A stretch of 56,820 nt of DNA from an uncultured Gammaproteobacteria bacterium (GCA_964372415.1 CAYJQH010000004.1:27387-84206); one strand, 5' to 3'. Positions 18,621-32,431 are shown, counted from the stretch's first letter. Notes: generated by a model not told the origin, from the letters alone. Numbers and translations are program-made.

Positions 18621-20969
18621 TTAAAAATCTAAAACCTTCACCCTCGGCTCTTCATCGATTATTTTTATTCGTATAGTGCCGTCCAGATCTGTTCTGTAAA
18701 TCTGGACTTTACTCATTTGCAGTCTGTCTATAACAAACGGGTCGGGGTGTCCGTAATTATTGTTTTCACCAACCGAAATAATGGCTATCTTTGGCTTCAC
18801 TGTGTCAAGAAACTCCGGTCCAGTGGAAGTTTCGCTTCCATGATGACCGACTTTGAGCACTCCAACCTCCCCTAGCCCCTCTTTCTGCAAGGAAGGAGCG
18901 TACTTTAATATCGGCTGCTCTTCCTGAACACCAGCATCGCCCATGAGCAACATTTTCCCCTCATTGGCTTCTAGAAGAAAAATCAGCGAGCCGTCGTTTG
19001 GATCTTCAAGCATCGCGCCGTCAAATGACTCCTTGGGCCACAGCGTCGTCAAAGTGACTCCCCCGCCAAGCTCAAGTACTTCCCCAGCTTTGATAACGCG
19101 ACGCTTGGATTCTGCCAGGCGAGAATATTCAGCAAATTCCGATGTGTCGTAGCCCTGATCAGCATCAATAACTTCAGATACCTGATAGCGCTCGAGAAGT
19201 GGCACAAGACCCGCCACATGGTCGGCATGCGGATGGGTATTAACCACAATGTCCACATTTCGATCCCACCACGGAAGAACTGCTGAAAGCTTTTCGAGCA
19301 CCGTAAAATCGGGTCCGCCGTCAATGAGTACATCTTTCTCTGGTCCGTCGATAAAAATGGCGTCGCCCTGACCAACATCGAATACCCAAACTGTAGTTCC
19401 AAGGTTCCCTCCTGTGATCCAGGCATAGCGCATTAAAAGACCAAAGGTCACAGCGGCGAAAAGCGTGGGCACCAACCAGCGTTTAGGAGCTGGCGAAATG
19501 GCCAACCCCCGCCTAGCCACCCTCACATTGTGGACGGGGAACAAGAGCAATATAGAAACGACAATAAGAGCCACACCTGCGACGAGTGTGGGGATATTAC
19601 TGAGCGAACGGATGATTTCGAGGATTGCCGACAAAAAAACCCAGGCTGGAAAGGCCAGCATGGCGCCGAGTCCTTGGTTAAGGGCACCGACGACTGTCGC
19701 TAAAGCTCCAAAGCCCATAGCGTATGGCACAAACGGCAAAACCAGGAGGTTGGCAATCGGGCCTATAGCAGCAAAGCGGCCAAAGTTAAGAAGCACAATC
19801 GGTAACGTCGCAATGGTCGCGGCAAGGGTGGTCGATAAAGCTTCGCGCAGGCCGAAAGCTTGCGGTATCCACCACAATCGTTCGCTCATTGGCCGTGACC
19901 ACCACAAAAGTCCAGCCGTCGAGAGCACCGACAACTGAAAACCGATGTCGTCGCGCAACAATCGAGGCTCAACGAGAAGCATAACAGCCACCGTGGTCAA
20001 CAAAATGTTTCGTGGCGATGTTTTGCGGCCGGTTTGCTTGGCCGTAAGGACAAGCGCCGCCATAATGCCGGCTCGAGTTACCGCTGCTTGAGCCCCAGCT
20101 ATGATGACAAAGGCAATAATGCCTAAAAGTAAAAGTGGAAAAGCCTCTTGGCGTCTAAAACCTAAGTGAAGCGCGAGCACAAAGAGCACACTTACGACAA
20201 TCGCCACGTTGGTCCCTGAAGCAGCGACGATATGCGAGGTTCCGGTTGAAATAAATCTTTCCTGCCATTCGTCGGAAAACGTATTGTCGCCAAGGAGAAG
20301 ACCAACAAGGAGCGTCGCCTGAGGCTCACCAAACGTACGCTCGATCACGGTCACTAGGCTGTTATGAAGATGGGCTAATTTGATTCTAAAACCCGTCGTG
20401 GCATACGGGTCGAGGATTATCGGTGCGTCATAAATTAGACACTGGCTATAAATGTCTTTAAGCGCTAAATATTTATCGTAAGCAAAGCCGTCGAATGGCT
20501 CGGGGGCTTCAAAAGCACAAGTAAGGGCAATGCGAGATCCAACAGGTATCTCAGGATAGCGTGGAACCGTCGCTAAGAGTTGGTCGTCGAAACTTTCGCC
20601 GTTTGCGGTGATCTCGTTTAGCGTGAGCCGTTGTCGATCGTCCAACTCACGTTTAACAACTATGGCCTCAACAGGGTGATGACCGCCGTTTAAAAGAGCG
20701 ATCGATTGCTCGCCCGGACCAACTGCGTTGTAACGAAGGCAACCGAGACCAAGACCGAGGGTCAGAAGCATGACATATACCGCTCGCCTTTCAAGAACCC
20801 CACCCGAGCCCTCTCCTATAGCGCGGAGAGGGAGCTGTTTAAGGAGAAACAGCGCGCAGGCAATAACCACGGTGACGATTGCCCAATGAAATTGCGAGGA
20901 TGCTAAAGCGATACCGGCAATGATGCCGGTCATGGCACTCGCCACGGCAAGTCCAGGAAGAAACCGCAC
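18621..20969 (-). CDS. comEC: ComEC/Rec2 DNA uptake channel with C-terminal metallo-beta-lactamase domain
   Basis: GTSHIVAASGTN, SVLSTAGL, DVGQGDA, THPHADHVAG, LKVGHHGS, YGHP. Confidence 0.95.
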   Translation of the reverse strand: MRFLPGLAVASAMTGIIAGIALASSQFHWAIVTVVIACALFLLKQLPLRAIGEGSGGVLERRAVYVMLLTLGLGLGCLRYNAVGPGEQSIALLNGGHHPVEAIVVKRELDDRQRLTLNEITANGESFDDQLLATVPRYPEIPVGSRIALTCAFEAPEPFDGFAYDKYLALKDIYSQCLIYDAPIILDPYATTGFRIKLAHLHNSLVTVIERTFGEPQATLLVGLLLGDNTFSDEWQERFISTGTSHIVAASGTNVAIVVSVLFVLALHLGFRRQEAFPLLLLGIIAFVIIAGAQAAVTRAGIMAALVLTAKQTGRKTSPRNILLTTVAVMLLVEPRLLRDDIGFQLSVLSTAGLLWWSRPMSERLWWIPQAFGLREALSTTLAATIATLPIVLLNFGRFAAIGPIANLLVLPFVPYAMGFGALATVVGALNQGLGAMLAFPAWVFLSAILEIIRSLSNIPTLVAGVALIVVSILLLFPVHNVRVARRGLAISPAPKRWLVPTLFAAVTFGLLMRYAWITGGNLGTTVWVFDVGQGDAIFIDGPEKDVLIDGGPDFTVLEKLSAVLPWWDRNVDIVVNTHPHADHVAGLVPLLERYQVSEVIDADQGYDTSEFAEYSRLAESKRRVIKAGEVLELGGGVTLTTLWPKESFDGAMLEDPNDGSLIFLLEANEGKMLLMGDAGVQEEQPILKYAPSLQKEGLGEVGVLKVGHHGSETSTGPEFLDTVKPKIAIISVGENNNYGHPDPFVIDRLQMSKVQIYRTDLDGTIRIKIIDEEPRVKVLDF
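18865..18898 (+). repeat. C-tail/hairpin element copy, in-frame in comEC (PSLQKEGLGEV)
   Basis: ACCTCCCCTAGCCCCTCTTT-CTGC-AAGGAAGGAG. Confidence 0.7.
19505..19542 (+). repeat. Degenerate C-tail/hairpin element copy, in-frame in the comEC linker
   Basis: ACCCCCGCCTAGCCACCCTCACATTGTGGACGGGGAAC, 28/38 identical (counted by hand) to the copy at 30214. Confidence 0.55.
20797..20834 (+). repeat. C-tail/hairpin element copy, in-frame in comEC (LPLRAIGEGSGGV)
   Basis: ACCCCACCCGAG-CCCTCTCC-tatagcgc-GGAGAGGG-AG. Confidence 0.7.
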
Positions 20970-25265: not shown

Positions 25266-26291
25266 ATGCGTGGTCAACTGCCGCAAAAACTTGTCGAACG
25301 CCTCACCCAACAGTTTGGTCCAACCACCTTCCGCGAGATAGAACGCGCTTTTTCGGTTCGTCGATTACCAATATTTCGCGTCAATACCCTCAAGGCAACT
25401 GACGAGCAGATCATGGAGCTCATGCGAGAGCAAAATATAGCTTTCGAACGGGTGAAAAACGTGCCCCACGCCTTCAAAGTAAAAAACAAAAGCAACCACG
25501 AGCTCCTCGAGCTCCCAATTACTCAGCAAGGGCTTATCTATCTCCAAGGCATTACTTCGATGCTCCCTCCTCTATTCATCGAACCACAACCTCGCGAGGC
25601 AATTCTCGACCTGTGTGCCGCTCCGGGGAGTAAGACGACACAACTCGCGGCTTTATGTCTAACCTCCCCCTACCCCCTCCTTAACCAAGGAGGTGACGCT
25701 ATGCGACAACGTAGCACAAGGCGTTTCCCCCTTGCCTGCCCTGAGAGAAATCGAAGGGTTGAAGGGGGAGATCAAGAGGGGGTCAGTTCATGTCACATCC
25801 TGGCTGTAGAAGAAAACGCTATTCGATACCAAAAACTCGTAAACAGCCTCGAGACGCAAGGCGCCTCAAATGTCGAAACTCGCCACGGTGACTCAACACA
25901 ACTTCATAAGGAGTTTCCCGAGAGCTTCGACAAAGTCTTAGCCGATGTCCCCTGCTCGGCTGAGGGTCGCATTGACCTCAACGATCCGCGATCGTACAAG
26001 TATTGGTCGGAAAAAAACATCGTGGCCCACGCCAAGCTCCAACGCCGCTTGCTCCGATCGGCCGTAGCTTGTCTCAAACCTGGCGGCACGCTTGTCTACT
26101 CGACCTGCACCCTTGCTCCCGAAGAAAACGAAAAAATGATCGAGTGGCTAGTGGCCGAGTTTCCCCAAATGAAGCCGGTCGAAATCTCTGTTCCCCTCAA
26201 AGGCTCCCGAAAAACTGCATTCAAGACGTTCACCGTCCTCCCAACCGATGAGGCAGAAGGTTTTTTTGTGGCGAAACTTAAAAAAGTTTGA
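25266..26291 (+). CDS. RsmB/NOP2 family RNA m5C methyltransferase with ~40-aa repeat-derived insertion
   Basis: LDLCAAPGSKT, DVPCSAEG, VYSTCT, EENE, EGFFVA. Confidence 0.92.
   Translation: MRGQLPQKLVERLTQQFGPTTFREIERAFSVRRLPIFRVNTLKATDEQIMELMREQNIAFERVKNVPHAFKVKNKSNHELLELPITQQGLIYLQGITSMLPPLFIEPQPREAILDLCAAPGSKTTQLAALCLTSPYPLLNQGGDAMRQRSTRRFPLACPERNRRVEGGDQEGVSSCHILAVEENAIRYQKLVNSLETQGASNVETRHGDSTQLHKEFPESFDKVLADVPCSAEGRIDLNDPRSYKYWSEKNIVAHAKLQRRLLRSAVACLKPGGTLVYSTCTLAPEENEKMIEWLVAEFPQMKPVEISVPLKGSRKTAFKTFTVLPTDEAEGFFVAKLKKV
25662..25783. mobile_element. 122-bp MITE-like composite with two inverted C-tail/hairpin ends, in-frame in the methyltransferase
   Basis: Left ACCTCCCCCTACCCCCTCCTT-aacc-AAGGAGG; right (rc) ACCCCCTCTTGATCTCCCCCTT...AAGGGGG; nested CCCTGAG-N7-GAAGGG core at 25739-25758. 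Confidence 0.6.
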
Positions 26292-28108: not shown

Positions 28109-30175
28109 TTACACTTTGAGAATACGTGCTTGTTCTTCTTCTTGGTAGGCTTCGAGCGTATCACCAATCTCTACTTTCGTCTTACCTTGGAAGGCAATAC
28201 CGCAATCCTGACCGGCTACCACATCTTTAACCGAGGTTTTGCCCGATTGGAGTGCCTCGATTTTACCTTCACCTACCACTTGGCCACCACGAAAAATACG
28301 TAGCGTAGCTCCGGGAATGAGTTTTCCTTTCTTAACCTTGGCGCCAATAATCACCCCCTTGTCGGTCTTTTTAAATAAGGCCAAAACTTCACCGGAACCA
28401 AGCTCGGTGTACACCTTTTCCGAAGGAATAAGTTTTTTTAGACGCTCGACCACGTTTTCGAATAATTTATAAATTACAGACGAACTTTCAATAATTACAT
28501 TCTTGTCACGCGCCAGCTGTTCGGCGCCGGCTGCCTTAACGTTAAAGGCATAAACAACCGCTTGCGCGCCTTCGGCACGAAGCACGTCTGCATCCGTAAT
28601 ATTACCTAGACCTTTGCCGACTATTTTAACGCCAACATAAGGGTTTTCGACCTTCTCAATCATGCCAATTAAGGCTTCAAGAGAGCCCAGAACATCGGCT
28701 TTAACAACGATATTCAAATACACCTTGCCCTCTTCTTTCTTTTCCTCATCGGTCTTCGGGGCAGCAGTCTTCATGGCAATCTCGCCAACGCCGCCAGCCG
28801 CTCGACCAGCCTGTTCACGAAGTACTTCAAGGCTTGAGACATCTTCTGGGACTTCCAGAATGTCGCCAATCGATGGGGCTGCTTTAAGACCGAGAATTTT
28901 AACTGGGGTCGAAGGCGTTGCTTCTTTTATGTTTGAACCGTCATGCGCTTTCATAGCCCGAACGCGACCATAATTCATGCCACGTACAGCCATGGTGTCC
29001 TGCAGTTTGAGGGTTCCAGTTTGCACAAGAACAGTAGCTACAGGACCGGCACCCTTATCGACGCGAGATTCAATAATCGTTCCAACAGCGCGACGAGTGG
29101 GATCGGCTACGATACTGTCTTTCTCAAGGTCAGCGACGAATAAAAGCACGTCTAATAGACCGTCGATATTCATGTTCTTCTTGGCCGAAATCGGAACACA
29201 GATTGTTTTGCCACCCCAATCCTCAGGCACGAGCCCAAGCTCAGCAAGTTTGCTCTTCACGAGCTCGAGATTGGCGTCTGGTTTATCGATTTTGTTTATG
29301 GCCACGACAAAAGGCAGCTTAGCAGCTTTAATAATGTCGATAGCTTCCCTAGTTTGCGGCTGCACACCGTCATCGGCGGCCACGACGAGAATTGCAATAT
29401 CGGCTACCTTGGCGCCACGTGAACGCATGACCGTAAATGCCTCGTGACCTGGAGTATCGATAAATGTGAGCTTGCGCGAGATCCCTCGATCGCCTTCTAC
29501 TCCTCGGGATTTCGTGGCAGTCTTCGACTGCCACTCAACTTGATAGGCACCGATGTGCTGCGTAATTCCCCCAGCTTCGCCAGCCACTACATTAGCCTTA
29601 CGAATCGCGTCGAGGAGTGATGTCTTACCATGGTCAACGTGACCCATGACCACAATCACCGGGGCCCGCGGCTGAACTTTACCTTCTGCTTTCTCTTCTT
29701 CTTTAGCTTTTGCTAAACGATCTTCGCCACCGGTTGCGCCATCGTCTTTCTTCTCGCTTGCCGGTTCGGCGATAAAACCAAGATCTTCAGCCACGATGCT
29801 TGCTGTTTCAAAATCGATCCGCTCGTTCAAAGAAGCCAAAATGCCGCTCCTCATGAGCTCTTGCATAACCTTAGCAACCGGCAGATTGAGACTATTCGCA
29901 AAGTCACGAACCGTAACGGTTGGTGGAATCTGCACCCGCGGCGCATCACCGGCAAGCACCTGAGCCTTGCGGTCAGCCCGAGCTTTTTGTTCCTCCATTT
30001 TCTTCTGGAGGTACTGGCGCTTCTTGTGCTCCTGCCAAGCGTTCATGATCTTACCCACGTCACGATCGGGAAGCTTGATAGCTTTGTTCCCAATATCAAA
30101 TCCAAGCTCTGGGAGCTTGGCGCGCAATTCTTCGGTCGGTACCCGCAAACGCCGGGCAAGTTCGGAAATATTCAT
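28109..30175 (-). CDS. infB: Translation initiation factor IF-2
   Basis: [36 protein letters not shown]. Confidence 0.98.
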   Translation of the reverse strand: MNISELARRLRVPTEELRAKLPELGFDIGNKAIKLPDRDVGKIMNAWQEHKKRQYLQKKMEEQKARADRKAQVLAGDAPRVQIPPTVTVRDFANSLNLPVAKVMQELMRSGILASLNERIDFETASIVAEDLGFIAEPASEKKDDGATGGEDRLAKAKEEEKAEGKVQPRAPVIVVMGHVDHGKTSLLDAIRKANVVAGEAGGITQHIGAYQVEWQSKTATKSRGVEGDRGISRKLTFIDTPGHEAFTVMRSRGAKVADIAILVVAADDGVQPQTREAIDIIKAAKLPFVVAINKIDKPDANLELVKSKLAELGLVPEDWGGKTICVPISAKKNMNIDGLLDVLLFVADLEKDSIVADPTRRAVGTIIESRVDKGAGPVATVLVQTGTLKLQDTMAVRGMNYGRVRAMKAHDGSNIKEATPSTPVKILGLKAAPSIGDILEVPEDVSSLEVLREQAGRAAGGVGEIAMKTAAPKTDEEKKEEGKVYLNIVVKADVLGSLEALIGMIEKVENPYVGVKIVGKGLGNITDADVLRAEGAQAVVYAFNVKAAGAEQLARDKNVIIESSSVIYKLFENVVERLKKLIPSEKVYTELGSGEVLALFKKTDKGVIIGAKVKKGKLIPGATLRIFRGGQVVGEGKIEALQSGKTSVKDVVAGQDCGIAFQGKTKVEIGDTLEAYQEEEQARILKV
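29477..29533. repeat. In-frame double-hairpin insertion in infB
   Basis: cgagatccc...gggatttcg plus GTGGCAGTC-ttc-GACTGCCAC; encodes WQSKTATKSRGVEGDRGISR. Confidence 0.6.
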
Positions 30176-30213
30176 GCCGAAGAGCGTAGCGCAAAAAGCG
30201 CTCGCCGTAAAGG

Positions 30214-30661
30214 ACCTCCCCCTAACCCCCTCCACTTTGTGTAGGGAGAACTCGAGCGCTCCGCTCGGCTCTCTTCCGACGCAATACGTGTCGAATTTCT
30301 TCAAGCACGCTCTCGAGGCCACCAAGAACGTCACCGTTTGAGAAACGAATTACCTCGATATTCTGATCATTAATATAAGCTGTTCTGTTTGCATCATAAA
30401 TTTTCTTCTCAGGAGTGTAGTGAGGTGGACCATCAACTTCGATAACTAATCGATCCTCAGAACAATAAAAGTCGGCAATAAAAGGACCAATGTTGTGCTG
30501 TCGTCGAAACTTAGCATTTTCAACCTGTCGGTTCCTGAGATAGCGCCAAAGAAGGGCCTCGGCAAACGTTTCTTTCTTGCGCAGTATTTGTCGCCTCCAT
30601 AGATATAACCAGTTAAGCATAAAGCTCTCCCTCCACCAGGTGGAAGGAGTTAGAGGGAGGT
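30214..30661. mobile_element. 448-bp cassette: DUF559 endonuclease gene bounded by inverted C-tail/hairpin repeats
   Basis: Left ACCTCCCCCTAACCCCCTCC-actttgtgt-AGGGAG; right (rc) ACCTCCCTCTAACTCCTTCC-acctggt-GGAGGGAG; no target-site duplication seen. Confidence 0.6.
30222..30620 (-). CDS. DUF559 / Vsr-like endonuclease domain protein
   Basis: T.AE.LLW..LR, KFRRQHNIGPFIADFYC, LVIEVDG..H, D..R, EVIRFSN. Confidence 0.9.
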   Translation of the reverse strand: MLNWLYLWRRQILRKKETFAEALLWRYLRNRQVENAKFRRQHNIGPFIADFYCSEDRLVIEVDGPPHYTPEKKIYDANRTAYINDQNIEVIRFSNGDVLGGLESVLEEIRHVLRRKRAERSARVLPTQSGGG

Positions 30662-31158
30662 CAGTCTAACGCGTGCCGCAGCTGCACCTGCCGCGTGGTG
30701 GCACCACACGACCCAACTTCGAGTTGGTTTTGAAAAACGGCGAGGTAGTACCCCGGAAGGGCTGACGAAAACTGATCGTTTGGATCAACCGGAATAGCCG
30801 GTAGCAACTCTTCGCCTACGTATTCACGAAGATTTAGGCAGGCGTTAGAGGTCACCGGATCAGCGCATTGTTCACCGTGTGCGCCAGCACAATTACCTGA
30901 ACCAATGAGCACCTTGCCGTCCCCCGTACCTTTAAGTTGTTCGACTAGTCCAGCAAACTTTTGTGGATCCTCATTTTCAAGCTGAAGAACAGACGACATG
31001 AGAATCCTTACATGTTCGGCTCGCTCAATATCGCGTTCCTTAGCGATGACCCGCATGGGTCCCAAAATCATGACAATGACAAAACCTACAAAGAGCGCTA
31101 CAGCGAGTGCTGTAAGCACGTCGAGCTTCGTGACACCCATGTACTGACTGTGCGACAT
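30661..31158 (-). CDS. Type IV pilin-like protein (non-canonical N-terminal methylation motif)
   Basis: GVTKLDVL followed by a hydrophobic helix, then KERDIER (like KARDxxR); Cys pairs; IPVDP. Confidence 0.55.
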   Translation of the reverse strand: MSHSQYMGVTKLDVLTALAVALFVGFVIVMILGPMRVIAKERDIERAEHVRILMSSVLQLENEDPQKFAGLVEQLKGTGDGKVLIGSGNCAGAHGEQCADPVTSNACLNLREYVGEELLPAIPVDPNDQFSSALPGYYLAVFQNQLEVGSCGATTRQVQLRHALD

Positions 31159-31203
31159 GACAACATTGTAACAAAAAAACGGCGCTTGCGGCGTCGTCAC
31201 GGA

Positions 31204-31585: not shown

Positions 31586-32431
31586 TTATCTTTGGCAAAT
31601 CGGACAGTAGTGTGTTCCCCGACCACCGAGCACGATTTTCTTAATTGGTGCCTCACACGTCTGACAAAGCTGACCGTCGCGACCGTAGACTTTAAGAAAG
31701 CTTAAGAAACTACCTTTCTCACCATCGGTATCAACATAATCGTTGGCACTTGTCCCTTTTTGGGCGAGTGATTCGGCCAGCACCTTCTTAACCTCGGTGA
31801 CGAGACGCAAGCGATCGTTCGCGGTGAGAGTGCCGAGTCGACGGGTCGGTCGAATACCCGCTCGATGACAAGCTTCGTCGGCGTAGATGTTCCCGACGCC
31901 CGCGATCGCTTCCTGGTCGAGTAGAGCCGCTTTCACTTTTCGCGTTTTCGGCGTTACAAGACAAGCCGCGAGCTCTTCGGCTGAGGTATCAAGGGGTTCG
32001 GGGCCGTAAATTTCCGTAGCCTGACGCAAACCGTCTGCGTCAACGAGGCGCAAGTAGCCAAACATTCGCACGTCAGACCAAACAAGGCGGTCGCCGCTGT
32101 CTAAAACGAATAACATACGGTCGTGCTTGGTAGGAGTGTAGACCCCCTCTGACTCCCCCTTACTTAAGGGTGAGACGCTCGGCAGAAACAAAAACTTACC
32201 AGTCATCTTGAGGTGCCCGAGCATCGCCCGACCGTCGTCGAGATGAAAAATAAGGAGCTTTGCTCGTCGAGCGACTTTAGCAATGCGGCTTCCAGTGACT
32301 GCTTCTGCGAATTTCTGTCCGTGAGGGCGTTCGCGGCCTGACTTGAAAACAGTCACTGTAGAGAGTATCTTGCCACGGAGATGCTTATCTAGTTGCTGAC
32401 GTATTGTTTCAACTTCGGGAAGTTCGGGCAT
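31586..32431 (-). CDS. mutM: Formamidopyrimidine-DNA glycosylase
   Basis: MPELPEVET, RRAKLL, HLKMTG, GVGNIYADE, C-terminal CxxC...CxxC zinc finger. Confidence 0.97.
   Translation of the reverse strand: MPELPEVETIRQQLDKHLRGKILSTVTVFKSGRERPHGQKFAEAVTGSRIAKVARRAKLLIFHLDDGRAMLGHLKMTGKFLFLPSVSPLSKGESEGVYTPTKHDRMLFVLDSGDRLVWSDVRMFGYLRLVDADGLRQATEIYGPEPLDTSAEELAACLVTPKTRKVKAALLDQEAIAGVGNIYADEACHRAGIRPTRRLGTLTANDRLRLVTEVKKVLAESLAQKGTSANDYVDTDGEKGSFLSFLKVYGRDGQLCQTCEAPIKKIVLGGRGTHYCPICQR
32142..32174 (+). repeat. C-tail/hairpin element copy, in-frame in mutM (SPLSKGESEGV)
   Basis: ACCCCCTCTGACTCCCCCTT-actt-AAGGGTGAG. Confidence 0.7.

Follow-up and report, generated by a model that had tools for sequence, protein, structure and literature searches.

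A DUF559 nuclease-family gene between inverted repeat arms is one copy of a module that recurs across bacterial phyla

In a 56,820-nt stretch of DNA from an uncultured gammaproteobacterium (hereafter "the window", with coordinates counted from its first letter), a small gene of the DUF559 family lies next to infB, between two inverted copies of a short, hairpin-bearing repeat. Our analysis shows that this gene and the repeat copies at its ends, referred to here as arms, are a discrete module that recurs across phyla in unrelated genomic contexts. The repeat-nuclease module is widespread and so far undescribed, and the locus in the window is a free-standing copy of it. An earlier reading of this DNA, made from the sequence alone (the sequence-only reading), had proposed a minimal nuclease-plus-hairpin system at this place; it missed that elsewhere the whole cassette, beyond the short units of the repeat, stands in frame in host genes.

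The two arms of the window cassette form a 40-nt inverted repeat that is 83% complementary, with a spacing of 370 nt, and 17 of the 20 positions in their outer 20 nt are identical. Both copies have the same build, with a C-rich tail (GACCTCCCYCTAACY) followed by a pyrimidine/purine hairpin. When the window was searched with a degenerate 23-nt arm pattern (at most 3 mismatches), two matches were found in the 56.8 kb, these being the two arms, while none was expected in shuffles. The inverted-flank score was 45 for the window gene, whereas the highest among 139 control intervals drawn from the window was 36. The TAG stop codon of the DUF559 gene (30222-30224) falls within the CCCCCTAACC tail of the left arm. 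At the other end, the right arm overlaps the TGA stop codon of the upstream open reading frame (ORF) by 2 nt, and infB begins 37 nt outside the left arm. The bracketed gene and both stop-codon overlaps had been described in the sequence-only reading, together with the lack of a transposase, an integrase and a target duplication, and the Pfam scan and the flank comparison agree with that description: no transposase or integrase family had a Pfam match among the neighbouring ORFs scanned. An insertion sequence or a miniature inverted-repeat transposable element (MITE) was considered and rejected, since inverted ends are present but there is neither a transposase family match nor a duplication of the outer flanks.

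Eighty further DUF559 loci were fetched using the peptide pattern [GK][PQ]F[IV]AD[FL]YC, their proteins being relatives with 40-56% identity from at least 10 phyla, and 73 of these loci had enough flanking sequence. Arms were called when the inverted-flank alignment score was at least 35, and 377 shifted intervals from the same loci were used as controls. Inverted arms were present at 52 of the 73 DUF559 loci and at 1 of the 377 control intervals (Mann-Whitney p=1e-32), and the resulting figure of 71% is valid for the DUF559 subclade caught by this one peptide pattern. Across the fetched loci the repeat is built alike, with a GGGGTGAGGG-type tail attached to a CCCTCTCC-type hairpin. At many loci there is a doublet on each side, in the arrangement [C-tail-hairpin][hairpin-G-tail]-gene-[C-tail-hairpin][hairpin-G-tail]; others retain the inner units only or the outer units only, and the units of the window cassette are outer ones. 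Gene-less arms were found elsewhere in 18 of the 52 loci at about 1 per 9 kb, as compared with about 1 per 220 bp at the gene, which is an approximately 40-fold enrichment.

Pairwise comparison showed that the DNA similarity between loci often spans just 420-520 bp, from arm to arm, with unrelated surroundings on both sides. In one Bacteroidota metagenome-assembled genome (MAG), for example, two cassettes (L009 and L021) are 98% identical over 516 bp, and similarity confined to the module was also seen between L029 and L040, between L050 and L055, and among seven Competibacteraceae-type loci. The identity is 89% between two cassette copies in Vasconcelosia and 82% between two in a Myxococcota MAG. 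In further sets of loci, the cassette occupies one syntenic place with flanks that are 67-91% identical, and because these sets keep the cassette through such divergence, it can evidently stay put for long periods. Two side observations concern L009 and L021: their cassettes are flanked by direct rather than inverted units (GACCCCTATCCCCGGCC.. on both sides), and their contigs end at or near the cassette, as is expected where an assembler meets a repeat.

At 10 of the 80 fetched loci, the DUF559 domain has an uninterrupted reading frame of at least 150 codons on each side; at 13 more, this holds for one side. The host genes at the fetched loci encode MmeI-like proteins, N6/N4 DNA methylases, a Type ISP protein in which the insert splits the C-terminal domain, and MurD, in which about 190 residues are inserted between positions aligning to ~233 and 273 of solved MurD structures. 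Restriction-modification genes account for seven of the nine long ORFs at these loci (L001, L004, L010, L018, L067, L070 and L072). A similar predominance, which may reflect tolerance, target preference or a functional link to DNA methylation, was seen in a family search, whose best 150 hits include 31 proteins of at least 350 aa. When 20 such proteins were scanned (P0058-P0183), 17 proved to be restriction-modification components (seven HsdS, HsdM, five N6/N4 and one Eco57I-type methylases, two MmeI-like and one Type ISP), and the remaining three were UvrC, an EPSP-synthase/Nudix protein and a class I aminoacyl-tRNA synthetase (aaRS). Domains split by in-frame cassettes are those of MurD, Type ISP, UvrC, HsdS and aaRS. 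Two MmeI-like genes share only 30% identity and their cassettes 73%, and the cassettes occupy different positions; one of the two genes has additional gene-less doublets (peptide SPSPLAPLPVGEG..LPSPQGRRVGDEG) at a place where its counterpart has none. Only host domains and DUF559 were found by Pfam in the in-frame copies, with no match to Hint/intein families, although no RNA-family scan for introns was made. As no intron or intein (Hint) sequences were seen around it, the DUF559 domain would stay in the host protein. In P0056 (377 aa), P0057, P0060, P0064 and P0058, two or three DUF559 stretches per protein were observed, in tandem or repeated in one frame.

The window ORF matches Pfam DUF559 (PF04480) with E=2.1e-30 and 105 bits (cut-off 20.6) over profile positions 8-108 of 109. 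The protein also matches PDB 3HRL ("endonuclease-like protein") with E=2.6e-18, and it is 42% identical to E. coli YcjD (b1289) over 104 residues. D50, E61-x-D63-G-x-x-H67 and D76 are invariant in alignments of 20 and 8 homologues, the window protein included, and R92 is also among the family-invariant residues that the window protein keeps. A Vsr-like fold points to a nicking repair enzyme (PMC3424549). The family was also searched for among 1.84 billion representatives, which yielded 22,184 clusters (50% identity) at E<=1e-3 and 9,857 at E<=1e-10. The DUF559 domain is under purifying selection: the ratio of nonsynonymous to synonymous substitution rates (dN/dS) was 0.02-0.23 in 16 of 17 pairs, in-frame copies included, and the remaining pair was saturated at synonymous sites. 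Family members occur in 2 of 50,697 phage records and in 40 of 72,556 plasmid records, the latter mostly non-mobilisable. For the window gene, the GC content at third codon positions (GC3) is 0.40, lower than that of its neighbours (0.48-0.57) without being an outlier.

The window itself holds further members of the repeat family (Table 1). An nhmmer profile built from four copies gave four strong members, which are both arms, 25655-25706 and 32134-32186, and two weak ones at 18865-18900 and 19502-19542; the density is about one unit per 7-14 kb. As compared with structure 1L1T, MutM has 11 more residues at the unit at 32134, and the m5C methyltransferase has about 40 residues more than 1IXK, which are read in frame from the doublet. 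The short in-frame inserts ascribed to this repeat family in the sequence-only reading are therefore real in both proteins. The doublet copy at 25661 has the stem CCTCCTT..AAGGAGG.

Table 1. The DUF559 cassette and the gene-less units of the same repeat family in the window
Feature	Coordinates	Strand	Remarks
Whole cassette (arm, DUF559 gene, arm), 450 bp	30213..30662	-	Between infB start (30175) and stop (30661-30663) of the upstream 179-aa ORF
Left arm	30213..30252	+	C-rich tail GACCTCCCCCTAACC and imperfect hairpin CCCTCCAC-TTT-GTGTAGGG; holds DUF559 TAG stop; nhmmer E=1e-9
Right arm, inverted copy	30623..30662	-	Tail GACCTCCCTCTAACT and hairpin CCTTCCACC-T-GGTGGAGGG (minus-strand reading); nhmmer E=6e-11
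DUF559 ORF, 132 aa, own ATG and TAG	30222..30620	-	Predicted Vsr-like PD-(D/E)XK fold
Gene-less inverted doublet, tails outward as at DUF559, nested hairpin	25661..25783	+	Fold z=-2.8; in RsmB/NSUN-type m5C methyltransferase gene
Solo unit in mutM/fpg	32134..32186	+	E=7e-10; in-frame peptide SPLSKGESEGV
Weaker unit in comEC	18865..18900	+	E=0.04; minus-strand reading SLQKEGLGEV
Weak degenerate unit in comEC	19502..19542	+	E=0.13
Very weak candidate in comEC, hairpin CCCTCTCC...GGAGAGGG	20796..20838	+	nhmmer E=4; not established

The ORFs around the cassette are thioredoxin-like, infB, mutM and truB. The upstream ORF (30661-31200), which the sequence-only reading had called pilin-like, has no Pfam match, so that this label lacks Pfam support; its N-terminus GVTKLDVLTALAVALFVG resembles a type IV pilin signal only loosely. 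A scan of metagenomes with IF-2 returned relatives 42-53% identical with another gene order, and none of them had DUF559, the upstream gene or mutM near infB. In the right unit (30621-30640), the purine arm yields GGAGG 9 nt ahead of the DUF559 ATG; if most genes of the window are without a Shine-Dalgarno sequence, this unit may provide the cassette with a ribosome-binding site of its own. The units were also considered as intrinsic terminators or promoters, and this was rejected: terminator-like matches never coincided with the arms, and no sigma-70-like site was found. A perfect small hairpin, AGCGC-AAAAA-GCGCT, is present at 30190-30204 (region 30187-30212), between the left arm and the infB start, and downstream of it on the infB strand comes TACGCT, 6 nt ahead of the ATG. 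This hairpin may be a terminator-like stop for DUF559, and TACGCT may be infB's own -10-like box, in which case the cassette need not drive infB. Within infB, an in-frame stretch of IF-2 (the TATKSRGVEGDRGISRK region, 29477-29533) forms adjacent hairpins in its DNA, and the outer 20 nt of the arm have a fuzzy match (5 mismatches) at 29478, inside this stretch, which may be a decayed member of the repeat family.

The tail-plus-hairpin unit, with its three blocks, has the build of a motif that has already been described, which the sequence-only reading did not recognise. Holder et al. 2015 (NAR 43:10126, PMC4666352) reported "intrastrand triplex motifs" (TM), with the E. coli consensus (TMECO) CCCTCNCCC-N3-6-GGGNGAGGG-N3-GGGNGAGGG, formerly known as BoxC or PIT elements (Hoyne & Maher 2000, 2002, as cited in PMC4666352). 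The E. coli K-12 genome has 23 TMECO copies, five of which occur as inverted doublets, and triplex motifs are abundant in cyanobacteria, Neisseria and others, where they are associated with local rearrangement (PMC4666352). The introduction of the same paper states that, in vitro, TM units fold into stable triplexes and stop DNA polymerase. Although BoxC/PIT/TM repeats have been known since the 1990s and from hundreds of genomes, their origin, partner protein and function have not been found; the authors report no mobility gene associated with the motifs, and their paper makes no mention of DUF559, ycjD or any endonuclease (PMC4666352).

Like TMECO, the window units, about 35 nt long, consist of a pyrimidine arm, a loop, a purine arm, a 2-4-nt linker (TTA, TA, TCA or CTA) and a G-rich third block, and this three-block order is found in all four strong units as well as in the weak ones. 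Further points of likeness are that both families are dispersed as solo copies and inverted doublets, and that the DUF559-flanking units in the fetched loci include near-canonical CCCTCTCC..GGAGAGGG..GGGGTGAGGG. They differ in that: the TMECO consensus has no match in the window, whose units have other stems (CTCCCTCCACC, CCTCCTT); and the E. coli motif is reported as always intergenic, whereas the window has units in frame within genes and others on both sides of a nuclease gene. We refer to the window units as BoxC/TM-like variants, and not as established triplex formers: they share the three-block order, they have no consensus match, and their third block matched the purine arm at 47 of 68 positions as a mirror image and at 44 of 68 in direct order. 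By this comparison, they are best described as a divergent variant of the motif.

In E. coli K-12, TMECO no. 9 (1,351,204-1,351,239) lies 168 bp downstream of ycjD (1,351,407-1,351,760), the sole DUF559 gene checked in that strain, and the ycjD stop codon is in the loop of a degenerate unit. YcjD and the window protein therefore share both the family and a stop codon inside a unit; the difference is that the units of ycjD are downstream only, with none upstream. About 45 nt of the ycjD 3' end are repeated downstream (GGAGACGGTGCTGGAGAATATTC..CTGAACC; L088 11250-11440, minus strand), with the degenerate unit of the stop codon on one side and the full TMECO on the other, a picture suggestive of a second unit insertion or of slipped repair. 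Between fabI and sapF, E. coli genomes have either a 658-bp segment with ycjD and TMECO no. 9 or the 7.9-kb eefRABCD operon (L088, NC_000913.3 1,351,040-1,351,830; L089). The ycjD form was found in 3,375 of 5,426 E. coli genomes, and about 2,050 are without ycjD at the locus. Near-identical matches of the query elsewhere averaged ~4.4 places in ycjD-positive and ~2.0 in ycjD-negative genomes, among the matches listed, a comparison that is confounded by phylogroup and by the K-12 query. Milman et al. 2023 (PMC9881135) found DUF559 proteins enriched among predicted inversion targets (odds ratio 14), a result tabulated without comment and one that is expected from the inverted flanks of the gene. 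Our literature search found no paper linking DUF559 or ycjD with BoxC/PIT/TM repeats.

A quick maximum-likelihood tree of 81 DUF559 domains was used to follow gene and units together. The unit type changes 7 times on this tree versus 17 under the null. Of the 11 loci with CCCTCCTT/AAGGAGGG-type units, 10 fall in the clade of the window protein (Shimodaira-Hasegawa-like approximate likelihood ratio test, SH-aLRT, 90; not starred), which spans Pseudomonadota, Bacteroidota, Ignavibacteriota and Armatimonadota; other Bacteroidota, with CCTCTCC-type units, are placed elsewhere. The stem type of this clade is also present among the window copies, at 25661. The tree thus shows that gene and units were co-transferred or co-evolved, and leaves unspecified which of the two was the driver. 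Host phylum changes 16 times versus 51 under the null, and descent was therefore largely within phyla.

We tentatively prefer the reading that DUF559 is a candidate partner enzyme acting on its own units and spreading both units and gene; it may well be right, though we would stop short of calling it probable. According to this proposal: DUF559 would be a structure- or sequence-specific nicking enzyme for its own units, either folded (as hairpin or triplex) or duplex; the nick or break would be repaired by recombination or template switching from another copy; and such repair would place copies of units and doublets at new sites, along with the gene itself if both arms take part. The solo unit in mutM, the doublet in the rsmB-like gene and the gene-bearing doublet of the window cassette might then be products of one system, and the cassette gene may be the enzyme source of this genome. 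As there is no target duplication and the E. coli alleles are of the replacement type, recombination fits better than cut-and-paste, and the same two observations fit a model in which the gene is a passenger equally well. A wider claim is that DUF559 proteins are the cognate enzymes of BoxC/PIT/TM repeats throughout Bacteria, which would make them a second, independent repeat-nuclease partnership beside that of repetitive extragenic palindromic sequences and their associated tyrosine transposases (REP/RAYT), based on a Vsr-like nicking enzyme and folded inverted units, with cassettes also standing unspliced in frame in host genes, most of all in those of restriction-modification. This is conceivable, and at present rather doubtful.

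The comparison with REP/RAYT had already been drawn in the sequence-only reading, and it fits the layout. In the REP/REPIN-RAYT systems, as here, a mostly chromosomal gene of nuclease type is flanked by inverted hairpin repeats that are commoner elsewhere as singlets and inverted doublets, and the gene is under purifying selection with largely vertical descent. The enzymes are unrelated in sequence, however, RAYT being of the HUH/Y1 (IS200/IS605-type) class and DUF559 having a Vsr-like PD-(D/E)XK fold. REPs are extragenic, whereas the units and the whole cassettes of the DUF559 module are also translated in frame as parts of proteins; and several copies and contexts, as seen for the DUF559 cassette, are unusual for a RAYT. 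Because Pfam finds only DUF559 in the ORF, the window locus is not a member of the REP/REPIN-RAYT systems in spite of the similar layout. The Vsr-like "EDxHD" homing endonucleases (I-Bth0305I, PDB 3R3P) and the homing endonuclease genes of introns and inteins offer another likeness, in that a small Vsr-fold gene lies inside genes, essential ones too, without destroying them, and one element is found at different sites in homologous hosts; the proposed mode of spread of the DUF559 module would likewise resemble that of a homing element. 3R3P was not retrieved in a sequence search with the window protein. The DUF559 cassette differs in having structured inverted repeats at its ends, which homing endonuclease genes lack, and the window copy is free-standing and intergenic. 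Finally, Rickettsia palindromic elements and other MITE-like in-frame repeats (PMC10969869) are likewise short palindromic in-frame inserts tolerated as extra loops, as in MutM, the m5C methyltransferase and ComEC here, but the Rickettsia elements are without a protein gene, while a nuclease gene is the recurrent companion of the present repeat.

Several observations weigh against an enzyme that actively spreads its units. At the window locus there is no target duplication, as the outer flanks GTAAAG and AGTCTA share none, and folding of single-stranded DNA gave arm hairpins that are no stabler than shuffles (z ~ -0.3 for both). Three public sequencing runs hold the stretch, and their contigs, which drop rare variants, are identical to the window, with none skipping the cassette. 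The closest relative of the window gene is only ~55% identical, and the 71% of loci with arms refers to one subclade. Cassette copies within a genome are mostly old (82-89% identical), one pair being 98% identical, and a tree that follows host phyla fits slow, mostly vertical descent. The mirror symmetry expected of a triplex-type third block was 47/68 in the window units versus 44/68 for direct symmetry, a test weakened by their G-rich composition. No biochemical activity, cut site or DNA target was found in the literature for any DUF559 protein. In the 5,426 E. coli genomes, no clean BoxC insertion allele was seen at tauD-hemB. The spacer there (L090, L092, L093, L094) has three alleles of 769, 836 and 887 bp, which differ by replacement of the whole intergenic stretch and not by a unit-sized insertion with duplication; the short allele has a plain terminator hairpin in place of the BoxC-bearing stretch, and the long one has an extra 51-bp piece starting with a duplicate of GGACGGTC.CCTCG. 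The ycjD/eef polymorphism is likewise a segment replacement and does not reveal the origin of either state. Lastly, gene-less units far outnumber the gene, so that the gene may ride on the units. In the light of these points, what stands of the nuclease-plus-hairpin system of the sequence-only reading is the recurrent discrete module, while the word "autonomous" and the role of DUF559 as mover or maker of the repeats are without support.

The units might instead spread or arise without DUF559, by slippage, template switching at folded DNA, host recombination or an enzyme acting in trans, with DUF559 as cargo that is kept for another role, such as Vsr-like mismatch or damage repair or a part in restriction-modification. 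We regard this as possible, if on the unlikely side. It would account for the excess of units over genes (at least 4 strong and 2-3 weak units versus 1 gene in 57 kb, a similar picture at the fetched loci, and 23:1 in E. coli), for the lack of target duplications and of clean insertion alleles, and for the 17 of 20 long domain-bearing proteins that are restriction-modification components, a hint that the function is connected with DNA methylation; a useful cargo gene would equally be expected to be under purifying selection. It leaves unexplained why one small protein family should be the cargo at 52 of 73 loci in at least 10 phyla, and why the unit type tracks the nuclease clade across phyla, and a cargo role is hard to picture for DUF559 domains without start and stop codons that persist in the MurD, UvrC and aaRS genes. 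The strong purifying selection could also reflect a host-beneficial, structure-specific nuclease that resolves the hairpins or triplexes of the repeats, for example at stalled forks, and that is linked to them by co-transfer and co-selection while neither making nor moving them. The nicking repair activity implied by the Vsr-like fold (PMC3424549), the stable, polymerase-blocking triplexes mentioned in the introduction of PMC4666352, and the distribution of the family, which is mostly chromosomal, tracks host phyla, is near-absent from phages and is rare on plasmids, would all suit such an enzyme. Exact bracketing by inverted units would not follow from it, however, nor would in-frame cassettes in unrelated hosts or module-sized similarity between unrelated loci. 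Moreover, of the ~2,050 E. coli genomes without ycjD at the locus, all those among the matches listed still match the locus and some match TMECO-type stretches elsewhere. We consider such a protective role unlikely.

That the window copy is a relic, i.e., an old, immobile insertion with decaying arms and a gene that is domesticated or being lost, so that the locus is inactive today, seems to us quite improbable, although arms only 83% alike, their weak folding, the identity of only ~55% to the best database relative, the lack of variants in the contigs of three sequencing runs and a GC3 of 0.40 only mildly under that of the neighbours could be read in this way. The ORF is intact, is full length against the Pfam profile, keeps all family-invariant residues and has GGAGG 9 nt ahead of its ATG; in any case, a relic concerns the age of this copy and does not compete with the other models on the nature of the system. 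Chance, meaning that two copies of a dispersed hairpin repeat landed at the ends of an unrelated small gene, can be rejected, and we give it almost no credence. Units are fairly dense in the window, at about one per 7-14 kb, but at that density one would expect a 400-bp gene to have inverted units within ~40 bp of each of its ends with a probability of only ~1e-4, none of the 139 window control intervals reached the observed score, and the arrangement is present at 52 of 73 homologue loci versus 1 of 377 controls.

The window offers a compact natural series, from a solo unit through a doublet without the gene to a doublet that carries it. No function has been assigned to DUF559, a very large family whose structure is solved. 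If DUF559 and the BoxC/PIT/TM repeats belong together, both puzzles would be directly testable in E. coli K-12, with its ycjD gene and 23 BoxC copies. The in-frame cassettes would bear on the entry of new domains and loops into proteins and on the diversification of restriction-modification genes. If the proposal is true, a nuclease gene would colonise essential genes without any splicing machinery, a third lifestyle beside those of introns and inteins.

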